32,000 nucleotides of DNA from Prochlorococcus marinus subsp. pastoris str. CCMP1986 (GTDB lineage: Bacteria; Cyanobacteriota; Cyanobacteriia; PCC-6307; Cyanobiaceae), in NCBI RefSeq assembly GCF_000011465.1, contig NC_005072.1:960001-992000 (forward strand), written 5' to 3'. Below the pieces are notes generated by a model. That model did no database searches. It was not told the DNA's origin and saw only the letters and a program-made list of their open reading frames with translations. Positions within the stretch are counted from its first letter, which is position 1. The number at the start of each line of letters is the position of its first letter. The position numbers were made by a program, and so were the translations under genes. Shown piece by piece: positions 677 through 20,444 of the stretch.

Positions 677-773
677 AAAAAAACTAATAAAAAAATATTC
701 TCTTACAAAAATAAATTTTTGAAAAAAATTTTTCTTATATTAAAACAATTCTAAATATATAAATTAATACAAA

Positions 774-1010
774 CTATTTATTTAATTTATTTCTATTCTT
801 GAATCTTACCAAGAAATAAATTCCAATCATTATAAGAATAGCCATTGAATATTTAAAAAGGAAAACATAAACGACATAAACTAAGAAAGGGAACAAGCAT
901 GCTCTTTTAAAATTAATTTTTTGAGTTGAGTTCATTTTTTCCCAATTTAAATATTCTCTCCACTGGAATATTTTCTTCATTTTTCTTTCTTTATAATTTC
1001 GATTAAACAT
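774..1010 (-). CDS. Hypothetical membrane protein
   Basis: 78-aa ORF with a basic N-terminus followed by two hydrophobic helices (CLFPFLVYVVYVFLF, MAILIMIGIYFLV). Confidence 0.45.
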   Translation of the reverse strand: MFNRNYKERKMKKIFQWREYLNWEKMNSTQKINFKRACLFPFLVYVVYVFLFKYSMAILIMIGIYFLVRFKNRNKLNK

Positions 1011-6926: not shown

Positions 6927-7682
6927 ATGACTGATATTGAGGAGATAAAAAAGAAGATATATCAAATTGCAGCTATTACTGACAGGGGGCAAAGACTGAA
7001 CAAATTAATTGCACCTATGTATCAAGAGAAGTTGAAAGAGATGGGAAACCTTATAGATATTCTTGAAAGTTTTAATACGGAAGTTTCTGAAGAAAAATTA
7101 TCTGGAGAGTGGGAATTAATTTATTCAACAGTTGAATTATTTAGAAGTTCACCGTTCTTTTTAGCTATAGAAAAAGCATTAAATGATGAATTTAAAAGTA
7201 ATCTTTTTTTTAAACTACATCAATTACAAGTAGGATCATTTGGTCTTTCTACCATTGGAAGAATTGCTCAAAATATTGATTTTGATAAAAAAGAATTTTT
7301 ATCAACATTTGATACCACAATATTTGGGCTTACAATAATTCCAATTCTTGGTTGGTTCAAGCTTCTTCCAACTTTTGGAGGAAGAGTAATAACACTTGCT
7401 GATGATTTAATTTTAGAAGATAAGGTACTTAAAATGAATTTGAAGAAAACCAAAGTCTCCAAAGTTGATGGACTTAATAAGATTCCATTGTTTAGCACGC
7501 TATTAATGGAAAGATGGTATCCAGTCAAAGAAGTATGGGAAAAATTGCCTTGGAATAAAGAATCACCTTCTTGCGAAGTATCAGTTATCTATTTAGATGA
7601 AGAGGTAAGAGTAATGAAAGATATTTATGGATCAACTTTTGTTTATATCAGACCAACAATATCCTTACTTAATTCTAAATAA
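6927..7682 (+). CDS. PAP/fibrillin family protein, second paralogue in this window
   Basis: 251 aa. It has …LSGEWELIYSTVELF… and a C-terminal …CEVSVIYLDEEVRVMKDIYGSTFVYIRP. Confidence 0.7.
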   Translation: MTDIEEIKKKIYQIAAITDRGQRLNKLIAPMYQEKLKEMGNLIDILESFNTEVSEEKLSGEWELIYSTVELFRSSPFFLAIEKALNDEFKSNLFFKLHQLQVGSFGLSTIGRIAQNIDFDKKEFLSTFDTTIFGLTIIPILGWFKLLPTFGGRVITLADDLILEDKVLKMNLKKTKVSKVDGLNKIPLFSTLLMERWYPVKEVWEKLPWNKESPSCEVSVIYLDEEVRVMKDIYGSTFVYIRPTISLLNSK

Positions 7683-12110: not shown

Positions 12111-12249
12111 AAATTGGTTCTAATAAATCGAGTGTTTCCTTGTTTCCACTGATTTAATAAAACCTCTCCTACACACAATTTAAATTTCACATGATTTTAT
12201 TATAGAGTAAATACTTATTGGGCAAGTATATTAATTGTCACAAAGCTAA

Positions 12250-12321
12250 AAACCAAAAGTACTCAAATTATTATTCGAGTACTTATTACTATCAGAAAAA
12301 TGTGTGTGAGGAGTTTCTGAT
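12250..12321 (-). ncRNA. yfr1: Yfr1 small regulatory RNA
   Basis: The minus strand carries an exact copy of the Yfr1 undecanucleotide ACTCCTCACAC (12304-12314). This motif lies in the loop of an 8-bp stem (ATCAGAAA/TTTCTGAT). An 8-bp terminator hairpin (AAGTACTC…GAGTACTT, 12257-12284) follows, then TTTTGGTTTTT. A -10-like TAGATT lies at 12328-12333. The predicted length is about 65-70 nt. Confidence 0.7.
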
Positions 12322-15428: not shown

Positions 15429-15528
15429 TAAAGAATATATTTAAGTCAGTTAGACCTTTATTTTATCAATATTAAGGAATCCATACTTATTTCATAACAA
15501 TTAATACCAAATATTGCTATGAATTATG

Positions 15529-15545
15529 AAAATGATTATCATTTT
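15529..15545. promoter_or_regulatory. Fur/Zur box in the divergent znuC-znuA promoter region
   Basis: AAAATGAT-T-ATCATTTT is a perfect 8-1-8 palindrome 22 bp upstream of the znuA ATG. The 19-mer at 15528-15546 matches the classical Fur-box consensus GATAATGATAATCATTATC at 15 of 19 positions by my count. Confidence 0.7.
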
Positions 15546-16999: not shown

Positions 17000-17018
17000 G
17001 ATAACGGTTTTCATTATC
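17000..17018. promoter_or_regulatory. Candidate Fur/Zur box upstream of the COG0523 gene
   Basis: Read on the minus strand this is GATAATGAAAACCGTTATC. It matches the classical Fur-box consensus at 16 of 19 positions by my count. It lies inside the longer inverted repeat TAGATAA-N9-TTATCTA (16998-17020), 57 bp before the ATG at 17075. Confidence 0.5.
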
Positions 17019-17074
17019 TAATAATGTCTAGTATATTGATTGCTAGGCATTATTTTAATTAGATCAATTAATAG

Positions 17075-18433
17075 ATGAGTATCAACGAAAAAGTTCCTGT
17101 TACAATCCTTACTGGATTCTTAGGCTCAGGTAAAACAACTCTTCTTAATAGAATATTAAGTGAAGAGCATGGTAAGAGAATCGCTGTTATTGAGAATGAA
17201 TACGGTGAAGTTGGGATAGATCAAGGTCTTGTAATAAATGCTGATGAAGAAGTATTTGAAATGTCTAATGGTTGCATTTGTTGTACTGTTCGCGGAGATC
17301 TTATTAGAGTCCTTGGTAATTTAATGAAAAGAAGGGATAAATTTGACTACGTTTTAGTTGAAACAACTGGGTTAGCTGACCCTGGTCCTGTTGCTCAAAC
17401 ATTTTTTATGGATGAAGAAATTAGTTCTGAATTCACACTTGATGGAATAGTTACATTAGTTGATGCAGCTCATATTGATCAACAACTTGGGCGTAGTGAT
17501 GAGAGTTCTGAACAAGTGGCATTTGCAGATGTCTTAGTCCTTAATAAAACGGATTTAGTCTCAAATGATGCTCTTGACAACCTTGAATCAAGATTAAGAG
17601 ATATGAATCGAATGACTCGTATTATTCGAGCAGAGAAAGCAGATGTTCCTATTGAGACAGTTTTAAATTTAAGTGCTTTCGATCTTGACCAAATTTTAAA
17701 GCGTAGACCAACTTTCTTAGAACCTGAATATCCTTTTGAATGGTCAGGAGTTTATGAGCTTGAGCCTGGAAAATATGAATTAAAACTTGAAGAAGGGCCT
17801 GATCCTGAAATGTCCTTAGTAGCTTTTGCTAATCAAGGATTTAGTGAAGAAGAATTAAAAGAGAGTGCAGAAGCCTCTGTAAGACTTTATGCAGAAAAAG
17901 CTAAAAACTTAGAATCTGGAAATACTATTCCATATGATGAGCATGTAAGTCTTAAATTGCAAAACAAAGGATCTAAATCTTTTATTTTGGATATTGAAAA
18001 AGCGTCAAAAATTGGATTGTTCACACAACATACTGCTGAAGAATTCAATATGAAAGTGCTAAAAATAGACTCCCAAGATAATGTTAAGGAAATTCCTTTT
18101 AAAACTGAAAGAAACTGGGTCGCAGAACATGAACATGATGATGAAGTTGGATCAATTGCAATAGAGCGTTTTGGAGATGTAGATCCTGAAAAGTTGAATA
18201 CTTGGATGGGAAGACTTCTTTCCGAGAAAGGAGTTGATATATTCAGAACAAAAGGGTTTATTAGTTATTCTGGCAACCCACGCCGAATAGTATTTCAAGG
18301 AGTTCATATGTTATTTACTGCCCAACCAGATAAAGAATGGGGAAATGAACCACGGAGAAATCAACTCGTGTTTATTGGAAGAAATCTAAATGAAAAAGAA
18401 ATGCAAGAGGGATTTGATAAGTGCCTGATATAG
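17075..18433 (+). CDS. COG0523-family (CobW/YjiA/ZigA-like) G3E GTPase, a putative zinc metallochaperone, with an inserted module
   Basis: 452 aa with Walker A GFLGSGKTT, the family metal motif GCICC, and ETTGLADP and NKTD. The CobW_C-like C-terminus reads …IFRTKGFISY…RIVFQGVH…LVFIGRNL. About 135 extra residues (aa ~221-356) separate the two domains and end in EHEHDDE. Confidence 0.9.
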   Translation: MSINEKVPVTILTGFLGSGKTTLLNRILSEEHGKRIAVIENEYGEVGIDQGLVINADEEVFEMSNGCICCTVRGDLIRVLGNLMKRRDKFDYVLVETTGLADPGPVAQTFFMDEEISSEFTLDGIVTLVDAAHIDQQLGRSDESSEQVAFADVLVLNKTDLVSNDALDNLESRLRDMNRMTRIIRAEKADVPIETVLNLSAFDLDQILKRRPTFLEPEYPFEWSGVYELEPGKYELKLEEGPDPEMSLVAFANQGFSEEELKESAEASVRLYAEKAKNLESGNTIPYDEHVSLKLQNKGSKSFILDIEKASKIGLFTQHTAEEFNMKVLKIDSQDNVKEIPFKTERNWVAEHEHDDEVGSIAIERFGDVDPEKLNTWMGRLLSEKGVDIFRTKGFISYSGNPRRIVFQGVHMLFTAQPDKEWGNEPRRNQLVFIGRNLNEKEMQEGFDKCLI

Positions 18434-19510: not shown

Positions 19511-19684
19511 TTACCAATAATTAGTTTTCAAATGTCTCTCAATACAAATCACTTCGCAATCATTATCAATACCTTTTGGATGAATATCGCAATATGAAAG
19601 ACATTGTAAATATTCATCTACGGGATTATTTTTATTATTATTAATATCATTATTGTGATTATTTTGAATTTTTGAATTAGTCAT
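19511..19684 (-). CDS. Possible 57-aa Asn-rich protein with a twin CX3C motif
   Basis: Hand translation gives MTNSKIQNNHNNDINNNKNNPVDEYLQCLSYCDIHPKGIDNDCEVICIERHLKTNYW*. It converges on the end of the WD40 gene and is below the track cut-off. Confidence 0.4.
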   Translation of the reverse strand: MTNSKIQNNHNNDINNNKNNPVDEYLQCLSYCDIHPKGIDNDCEVICIERHLKTNYW

Positions 19685-20185
19685 AAATAGATTTCCTCAA
19701 TTCATTTAGGGTTAACATAAACGAGAGAGATAAGAAAAGAAATAAGCAAAACTTACTAAAAAAATAAACAAGAAATATATAAAATTTAAAGCTTAAAATA
19801 AACAAATTGATTATTACTATGGGACATTTTGGATTAAAAATCAATGCGTATAAAAACGGATTGTTTTTTTAAAAGTTTTTAATTAATTTGTGATTGTTGA
19901 GTTTTAGGAGGTCTTTCAAAATGATCGATAGCCTGCCTGCAATTTCGGAATAATTCCGAACTAATTTAATTAACTGCTCCAATTATTTTTTATTAATGTC
20001 TGAACTTACTTCTTTCGCATCGTTTAGGTGCCCTACAAGAAAAAGTTCAATTCTAGAGTCTTTGCCCCAGTTAAAAACTATTAGTTTATTAAGGTTATTT
20101 TTAGCTGAAAAATAATTAACAACAAGGATCAATGATTTAGGCTAGTTGTTAATTTTGATAGATAAAATAAGTAAGAAAATAAAAG

Positions 20186-20211
20186 GAGAGCTTTTAAAAG
20201 CTCTCTTTTTT
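20186..20211 (+). terminator. Rho-independent terminator
   Basis: GAGAGC-ttttaaaa-GCTCTC is followed by TTTTTT. No annotated CDS lies immediately upstream, so it may terminate an ncRNA. Confidence 0.6.
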
Positions 20212-20300
20212 ATTTGGGCTAAAAAAACAAACTTTGGCATTATTATATTTTTTTAGCTATCTATTGTAATAAGAAACTTTATTTGGATAGATATAAAATA

Positions 20301-20444
20301 ATGTCAAAAAAACTTAGATTTTTTTCTGATTTATTAGCTAGAGCTGTTAATGAAATCGAATACAAAAATGTTCTTAAAAAATTAAAGAAACAAGATCTTA
20401 TAGCAGATGTAGATGATCAGAGATCACACCATTTTTATTCATAG
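20301..20444 (+). CDS. Possible 47-aa hypothetical protein
   Basis: Hand translation gives MSKKLRFFSDLLARAVNEIEYKNVLKKLKKQDLIADVDDQRSHHFYS*. Confidence 0.3.
   Translation: MSKKLRFFSDLLARAVNEIEYKNVLKKLKKQDLIADVDDQRSHHFYS

Follow-up and report, generated by a model that had tools for sequence, protein, structure and literature searches.

A candidate small RNA of the high-light Prochlorococcus clades at the locus annotated as PMM2057

The window analysed here, a 32,000-nt (32-kb) stretch of the genome of Prochlorococcus marinus subsp. pastoris strain CCMP1986 (MED4), contains at positions 19685-20300 an interval bounded by the ATG of a 57-aa open reading frame (ORF) on the minus strand (19511..19684) and the ATG (20301) of a 47-aa ORF on the plus strand. 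Position x of the window corresponds to MED4 position x + 960000, an offset anchored on PMED4_11781, listed as complement(979511..979684) in Table S2 of Steglich et al. 2008 (PMC2518516). On balance, we read this interval as the gene of a small RNA (sRNA) specific to the high-light clades HLI and HLII, and the protein-coding sequence (CDS) annotated in it, PMED4_11782/PMM2057, as an artefact. The transcript itself was already known; new, as far as the literature showed, are its non-coding class, a covarying helix within it, a conserved box upstream of its promoter, and the conserved module of genes to which it belongs.

Transcript, promoter and nucleotide-level conservation

Transcription of the plus strand was demonstrated by Steglich et al. 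2008 (PMC2518516), who detected the RNA by microarray, by 5′ and 3′ rapid amplification of cDNA ends (RACE) and on Northern blots, and listed it in Table S2 as IG1054f8-13 (PMED4_11782), class "5'+3'UTR + orf", at 979896..980215 (979969..980115 in brackets). In that study all five 5′RACE clones started at G19896, the 3′RACE ends fell at 20042, 20069, 20070 and 20072, and the array transcription unit, 979896..980215, carried signal to 20215; the probe numbering in Table S2 implies that probes beyond the terminator were not reported as expressed. The published 5′ string has a unique match at 19884-19896, and the 3′RACE string and the reverse transcription (RT) primers also map exactly to the locus, the primers at 19998-20031 and 20053-20070. 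The mapped ends yield RNAs of 147-177 nt, or 174-177 nt for the ends at 20069-20072. A start at approximately 19896-19900, predicted separately from the conservation boundary and the TAATTT −10 box, agrees with the 5′RACE result, and differential RNA sequencing (dRNA-seq; Read et al. 2017, PMC5607370) placed an orphan start site at 979901(+), equivalent to 19901, in three of four TSSAR tables.

These published data bear out the original prediction, made from sequence, of a stable RNA of about 100-300 nt from this interval. The sequence features that it listed (the AGGAGG, a 10-codon mini-ORF, the palindrome TTCGGAA-TAA-TTCCGAA around the stop codon of that ORF, a 10-bp inverted repeat and a terminator) lie where it had placed them (Table 1), as does a stretch richer in G+C at 20020-70 (43.1%, against 25.3% for the entire gap and approximately 21% for the flanks of the RNA). 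Its description of the RNA as unannotated did not hold, as a report of the transcript dates from 2008 and the databases carry it under the CDS PMM2057. Similarly, the interval is free of genes by the automatic gene callers of today, which make no call in 19685-20300, but not in the GenBank MED4 record, which carries PMM2057 at 19969..20115.

Table 1. Features of the interval and of the adjoining genes, in window coordinates
Feature	Position	Strand	Evidence or remarks
PMED4_11781, 57-aa protein with twin CX3C motifs (CLSYC...CEVIC)	19511..19684	-	Codon periodicity 13/13/43 of 57; annotated, expressed (Steglich 2008)
Upstream box, -60..-30 from the start site, with imperfect palindrome CAATGCG-N8-CGGATTG	19836..19866	+	94.2% identity, MED4 vs HLII
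-10 element TAATTT	19884..19889	+	TAnnnT pattern in all clades; TATA box in Steglich 2008 Table S2
Near-invariant RNA core, short species of 174-177 nt	19896..20072	+	RACE ends; start site 19901; 90.6% identity; no codon periodicity
Full primary transcript, ~316-320 nt, to the intrinsic terminator	19896..20215	+	Array unit; HLI/HLII homology up to the terminator; fold z -2.67
Shine-Dalgarno-like AGGAGG	19906..19911	+	Near-invariant; single change in 3 of 72 sequences
Mini-ORF, 10 codons, MIDSLP[A/E]ISE*	19921..19953	+	In all 78 loci; ATG 9 nt after AGGAGG
Stop-codon hairpin, core UUCGG/CCGAA, mini-ORF stop in the loop	19944..19960	+	5-bp core 99% paired
Annotated CDS PMED4_11782/PMM2057, 48 aa from ATT (39 aa from ATG 19996)	19969..20115	+	GenBank CAX37121.1, hypothetical protein
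Covarying helix UGAACUU/AAGUUCA (20001-07 with 20043-49), enclosing small hairpin GCAUCG..GGUGC	20001..20049	+	84 sequences
Inverted repeat AATTAACAAC..GTTGTTAATT (20114-23/20145-54), within the long transcript's less conserved 3′ portion	20114..20154	+	
Rho-independent terminator GAGAGC..GCTCTC, then T6-T9	20186..20211	+	Terminator scan; covariation
Zinc-ribbon and transmembrane protein, 108 aa	20573..20899	+	Next gene after the terminator in all clades save for the HLI insertion; weak Pfam Zn_Ribbon_TF match

For the comparison, 80 related loci were retrieved, and a metagenome scan yielded 42 true homologues of the RNA. The distinct homologues numbered 84, all from the high-light clades, of which 67 entered the RNAalifold set and 17 were additional metagenome variants. 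A clearly more divergent homologue was found in the metagenome contig Ga0163109_10366705 (hereafter L114), at 732-922 (+), where it scored 134 bits, compared with approximately 205-232 for most other homologues; the neighbour upstream of it is a 103-aa ORF with no Pfam match in place of the 57-aa gene. By these sequence matches the RNA occurs in at least one lineage outside its standard gene context. The RNA is single copy.

Between the HLI-type and HLII-type loci, nucleotide homology begins at 19511, continues through the terminator and is very unevenly distributed. When MED4 was compared with ten HLII genomes, identity was 90.6% over the RNA core (19896-20080), against 77.8% in the CDS of the nearby WD40 gene (52% at its third codon positions), 72% in the 57-aa gene, 64.6% in the intergenic DNA at 19685-19835, 61% in the promoter spacer and 71.7% at 20081-20185. 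In extent, the conserved core matches the RNA species of 174-177 nt. Variable sites were counted by codon position over 68 genomes. The WD40 gene (97/60/292 at positions 1/2/3, of 357 sites per position) and the 57-aa gene (13/13/43 of 57) varied mainly at third positions, whereas the PMM2057 frame (17/18/17 of 39) and the mini-ORF (1/2/1 of 10) did not, and no codon periodicity was detected in the RNA core in any of the three frames. These comparisons indicate that the core is constrained at the nucleotide level and not at the codon level.

The TAATTT element ends 7 nt before the mapped start at 19896. A −35-like TTGTTT is present at 19862-67, with a 16-nt spacer to the −10 element, but the −35 region is poorly conserved. 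Next to it lies the 31-bp box at 19836-19866, with 94.2% identity between MED4 and HLII in surrounding intergenic DNA of 61-65% identity; its half-site CAATGCGTA is retained even in the divergent L114. No second copy was found across the window at up to three mismatches, and no known transcription-factor motif could be matched to the box. It is a probable regulator-binding site, and because the conserved −60..−30 box sits beside a non-conserved −35 region, the arrangement points to a regulator-dependent promoter.

The RNA thus has a start and promoter of its own (19896/19901, with the conserved TAATTT), its neighbours being on the opposite strand or beyond the terminator; a 3′ end at a Rho-independent terminator (stem and T6-T9 at 20186-20211, array end at 20215); and conservation of nucleotides and structure with no coding signature. 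The last of these, seen as flat codon positions, nucleotide identity and covariation, favours the non-coding RNA that had been proposed.

Covarying structure of the RNA

Structure was analysed with RNAalifold on the 67 distinct sequences, followed by explicit counts of pairs, and the counts were then extended to all 84. The best-supported helix, which the original prediction had not listed, pairs 20001-07 with 20043-49. Not a single unpaired cell was found in it among the 84 sequences (100% paired), two of its pairs swap between G-C and A-U across the division of HLI and HLII (19 versus 48 sequences), and G.U intermediates occur among the 17 added metagenome variants, including L114. The terminator stem has four pairs with compensatory changes and 98.5% of its cells paired; as it is palindromic, it could terminate transcription in both directions.

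The other hairpins are less uniform. In the stop-codon hairpin the pair 19948-19956 changes from G-C to U-A in 3 of the 84 sequences, a few pairs are broken, and the outer two A-U pairs are confined to MED4-like genomes. Outside MED4-like genomes the 10-bp repeat is imperfect; 90% of its cells are paired. A proposed check of this stem for compensatory changes gave a divided answer, with one pair that covaries and another that is broken in 48 of 67 sequences. The stacked hairpins predicted from the MED4 sequence are therefore conserved in part: the terminator and the 5-bp core of the stop-codon hairpin are general, and the outer palindrome pairs and the perfect repeat are MED4-like only. Taken as a whole, the covariation score of the structure exceeded those of 500 out of 500 shuffles and of every slid control. 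The z-scores for folding were −2.67 for the 320-nt form and −2.2 for the minus strand.

Several observations weigh against the small RNA reading. The evolutionary events behind the covariation are few, in essence the separation of HLI from HLII and L114. In folding stability the 176-nt core does not exceed shuffled sequences (z = −0.58), so that structure alone does not account for near-invariance over 180 nt. A canonical Shine-Dalgarno (SD) sequence, 9-nt spacer and ATG are perfectly conserved, and the mini-ORF may be translated. The dRNA-seq tables (Read et al. 2017, PMC5607370) contain no plus-strand start site between 979901 and 981473, and downstream genes might consequently depend on read-through from this transcript. 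No target, binding partner or phenotype is on record for the RNA. Finally, no paper was found that discusses PMED4_11782/PMM2057, but a later name or class is possible, the MED4 primary transcriptome of Voigt et al. 2014 having been outside the search.

Searches for known families gave no match. Rfam 15 covariance models at gathering thresholds, a scan that had been suggested for this gap, found nothing in 19685-20300, and at permissive E-values only chance-level matches were obtained, mostly at the terminator (best 24.6 bits, where the gathering score is 60). Nor was any tRNA or tmRNA gene found. The features of a type I toxin-antitoxin locus, a class that Steglich 2008 had proposed for Yfr6 and Yfr9, are absent, as the ORF products are polar or basic with no transmembrane stretch and no antisense transcript has been reported at the core. 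A phage origin was considered and is unsupported: blastn against 50,697 phage records returned only short, unrelated matches from phages of Escherichia and Acinetobacter, approximately 40 nt long and located where the query reaches the terminator, and three pattern scans of IMG/VR returned nothing or 20-nt chance matches only. Identity with Yfr8 or Yfr9, suggested by Yfr10 and Cyano-1 matches at a distance of 7.5 kb as in island 1 of MED4, was also rejected, since the published primers and start-site strings of Yfr8, Yfr9 and Yfr10 are absent from the window. Elsewhere in the window Rfam matched Cyano-1 (the Yfr2 family, 64.5 bits) at 12111-12178 (-) and Yfr10 (60.3 bits) at 12241-12321 (-); by position (MED4 approximately 972.1-972.4 kb) the pair at 12111-12321 is Yfr5 and Yfr18, not Yfr2 and Yfr10.

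Transcription begins at G19896 by way of the TAATTT −10 box, and the array signal stops at the covarying terminator at 20186-20211, yielding a primary transcript of approximately 316 nt. Under the small RNA reading, 3′ processing would produce from it the form of approximately 175 nt with ends at 20069-20072. The conserved −60..−30 box would make the promoter regulator-dependent. The RNA would then act in trans, most likely through conserved, C/U-rich segments predicted to be unpaired, namely CCUGCCUG at 19932-39, CUGCUCC at 19975-81 and UUUGCCCC at 20061-68, which could contact G-rich or ribosome-binding regions of target mRNAs, or a protein. A target search by complementarity, confined to the window, returned loose AU-rich duplexes at chance level. 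A perfect, G+C-rich 12-nt complement to RNA positions 20057-20068, GGGGCAAAGACT, is present at 6986-6997 (+), 60 nt into a 251-aa ORF (6927..7682), and is probably a chance match.

Alternative readings of the locus

An RNA of this kind could also be a messenger. In such a dual-function reading the 10-codon ORF is translated, and either its peptide or the loading of ribosomes is functional, for example by opening the 5′ hairpin or by stabilizing the RNA. We consider this unlikely, though it deserves to be taken seriously. The SD, spacer and ATG were near-invariant in a survey that covered 78 loci from genomes and 42 contigs from metagenomes, and every homologue had an AGGAGG, a 9-nt spacer, an ATG and 8-10 codons; a few loci have shorter versions of 8-9 codons, and even L114 retains MVDSLPEIF*. 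The mapped start leaves a 25-nt leader before the mini-ORF, a normal geometry for initiation, and Steglich et al. 2008 (PMC2518516) accepted Yfr6 and Yfr9 as comparable "RNA plus peptide" cases. The universal presence of the ORF, however, is automatic where the nucleotides barely change: across the 78 loci the first 27 nt are invariant except for the A/E clade difference at 19940. Selection on the peptide was not seen. Third positions are as invariant as first and second positions, and apart from the fixed A/E difference the rare variants comprise E to V, three premature stops, one TAA to TGA and a single synonymous change, so that nonsense and nonsynonymous changes outnumber synonymous ones. 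This gives no codon-level signal, but with nucleotides so invariant the substitutions are too few to judge by. The SD is in addition predicted to be sequestered by CCUGCCU at 19932-39; in the RNAalifold model these pairs never vary among the aligned sequences and hence yield no covariation signal either way.

Two dual-function sRNAs offer a comparison. Like the RNA described here, SgrS/SgrT of E. coli and RNAIII/hld of S. aureus are structured RNAs with an SD-preceded short ORF near the 5′ end, but their peptides are conserved as peptides, whereas this RNA carries no codon-level signal and its pairing targets are only conjectured. Within the genus the closest parallels are Yfr6 and Yfr9 (Axmann 2005; Steglich 2008), which are likewise transcripts of 240-290 nt in the high-light clades, highly conserved outside the putative ORF and with a short ORF of uncertain meaning. 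They differ from this RNA in locus and sequence, and here no overlapping antisense partner is reported and the peptide frames are not conserved. Yfr1/Yfr2 and the Yfr10-family sRNAs resemble it as Prochlorococcus sRNAs with ultraconserved single-stranded motifs, thought to pair mutually or with mRNAs, but are shorter (54-100 nt), are recognized by Rfam and have no sequence similarity to it.

Less probable is a cis-acting 5′ leader whose regulated terminator, in the manner of an attenuator or riboswitch, would control read-through into the downstream gene. In HLII this is the zinc-ribbon gene; in HLI the 47-aa gene comes first and the zinc-ribbon gene after it. The order of RNA and zinc-ribbon gene on the same strand is kept in both clades, the dRNA-seq tables list no separate plus-strand start site for the downstream genes, and the layout of a conserved 5′ domain, variable linker and terminator is riboswitch-like. 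In HLII the zinc-ribbon ATG lies 54-72 nt past the T-run, but the spacer contains a conserved, promoter-like ATGACT-N16-GATAAT. In HLI the distance is 354-362 nt, and the insertion of a whole gene with approximately 300 nt (the 47-aa gene at 20301..20444, +, which is HLI-type only) has left the RNA unchanged. The abundant species moreover stop at approximately 175 nt, far upstream of the terminator. No conserved antiterminator was spotted by eye, no systematic search having been made, and the consensus fold contains no alternative pairing to the terminator arms. The core lacks a stability signal, and no Rfam riboswitch or leader matches it. A leader-peptide attenuator, which the original prediction had offered as an option, finds little support: trpL-type attenuators and riboswitch leaders share with this locus an SD-led short ORF, hairpins and an intrinsic terminator before a same-strand gene, but here the terminator lies 233 nt past the stop of the mini-ORF, the ORF has no run of a single amino acid or of regulatory codons, no alternative hairpins were noticed by eye or in the consensus fold, and the downstream gene depends on the clade.

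That the annotation is right, and the transcript the mRNA of a small protein PMM2057/PMED4_11782, is very improbable and largely refuted. The protein has a GenBank entry, the 2008 class names an ORF, and the ORF from ATG 19996 is present in most genomes with its first 13 residues fairly constant. But the annotated CDS begins at ATT, and neither frame, start nor stop is conserved. One-nucleotide indels at approximately 20039 shift the frame, so that MED4-like genomes encode 39 aa, whereas HLII and some HLI encode 29 aa ending in an unrelated C-terminus; the products of the ATG-19996 ORF range from 13 to 40 aa across relatives, with truncated forms of 13 to 20 aa, and in two lineages the ATG itself is lost (ATA in L008, AAG in L114). 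Third positions are not enriched for variation. The clade-fixed differences in the ORF are mostly nonsynonymous, and four of these substitutions, seen in the protein as E to K and F to L, are those by which the helix 20001-07/20043-49 is compensated. The 3′RACE ends fall within the CDS. No homologous protein was found: the 48-aa sequence forms a cluster with one member, from one contig, among 15 billion proteins, the 39-aa and the HLII 29-aa versions are absent among the same 15 billion, and the BLASTP search of PMED4_11782 in 2008 was recorded as "NO HIT" (Steglich et al. 2008, PMC2518516). We conclude from these comparisons that the CDS is probably spurious.

The annotation may also have hidden the RNA. 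IG1054f8-13 occupies the same locus (MED4 979896..980215, here 19896..20215) and was filed in 2008 among the small-ORF mRNAs, with no further discussion; in the present comparison the ORF passes no test for coding conservation, and the RNA is near-invariant and covaries. The ORF is not listed in the supplements of Waldbauer 2012. Lott et al. 2020 reported no sRNA candidate at this position, the known Yfr22, 23, 24, 26 and 27 being located elsewhere (the position of Yfr25 was not established). Their pipeline dropped contigs overlapping annotated protein-coding genes, and the RNA is probably missing from their list because PMM2057 is annotated as one.

Finally, it is highly implausible that the conservation reflects a minus-strand feature, be it a long 5′ untranslated region or promoter of PMED4_11781 or an antisense RNA: the palindromic terminator is usable on either strand, a few metatranscriptome reads map to 979717-979820(-) and the minus-strand fold z-score is −2.2, but PMED4_11781 starts at 19706, 190 nt from the core, L114 retains the RNA without PMED4_11781, it is the plus strand that carries the conserved T-run and both mapped ends, 5′ and 3′, and G.U pairs in the conserved helices would become A-C mismatches on the minus strand.

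Gene neighbourhood and significance

In the 42 metagenome homologues the gene order is conserved as cobW, WD40, the 57-aa gene (-), the RNA (+) and the zinc-ribbon/transmembrane gene (+). Judged by this synteny the RNA belongs to a conserved module consisting of a twin-CX3C small protein, the RNA and a zinc-ribbon membrane protein, and the module adjoins a znuABC-zur-cobW-WD40 zinc cluster. The 57-aa protein, PMED4_11781, varies in the length of its N-terminus, belongs to no Pfam family and lies beside the RNA in nearly all high-light contigs; a protein search with it found close high-light-type relatives only (at least 65% identity). Its start site at 979706(-), equivalent to 19706 and 22 nt upstream of the gene, is listed as orphan in Read et al. 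2017 (PMC5607370) since PMED4_11781 is missing from the older annotation. The 108-aa protein combines a CxxC...CxxC zinc ribbon at its N-terminus with a single transmembrane helix. At four more distant loci, strain MIT 1223 among them, where the WD40 protein shares 66-71% identity with that of MED4, cobW and the WD40 gene are present, and neither the 57-aa gene nor the RNA was found downstream of WD40; these loci are probably of the low-light clade.

Three further observations concern the zinc cluster. The WD40 gene starts with GTG at 18421, inside the cobW-like gene (17075..18433); this 13-nt overlap (18421-18433) suggests translational coupling and recurs in L087 to L090, distant loci of probable low-light type. 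A Fur/Zur-box-like palindrome, AAAATGAT-T-ATCATTTT, a perfect 8-1-8, lies upstream of znuA at 15527-15545. A Zur-box-like palindrome, GATAA-N9-TTATC, lies upstream of the cobW/COG0523 gene at 17000-17020. As sequence motifs, the two palindromes fit a Zur regulon of znuABC, zur, cobW and the WD40 gene. Control of the RNA itself by Zur or zinc is not supported, the only resemblance being a weak one (approximately 9-13 matching positions) at 19805-19821, in the DNA that separates the 57-aa gene from the RNA.

A bolder extension of these results, which we regard as a long shot, is that the core represents a new class of ribosome-engaging or protein-binding RNA, governed by a regulator at the −60..−30 box and with a translated mini-ORF, that coordinates the cysteine-rich small proteins (twin CX3C and zinc ribbon) with the Zur/ZnuABC/COG0523 cluster. 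If this were true, the most abundant phototroph of the ocean would possess a dual-function riboregulator linked to zinc or to stress.

Protein regulators are very scarce in Prochlorococcus, and the genus is believed to lean heavily on regulators made of RNA. Approximately 30 sRNAs are catalogued in the genus, mostly from MED4 and mostly without known function. The RNA locus described here is among the most conserved non-coding stretches measured nearby and exceeds the neighbouring protein genes in conservation across HLI and HLII, the clades that dominate the surface oceans. The analysis further draws attention to the conserved module of three genes next to the cluster for zinc uptake. Reclassification of the locus would leave one spurious protein fewer in the MED4 proteome, and in its place an sRNA candidate with a mapped start and mapped ends, a supported helix and a candidate regulator box.

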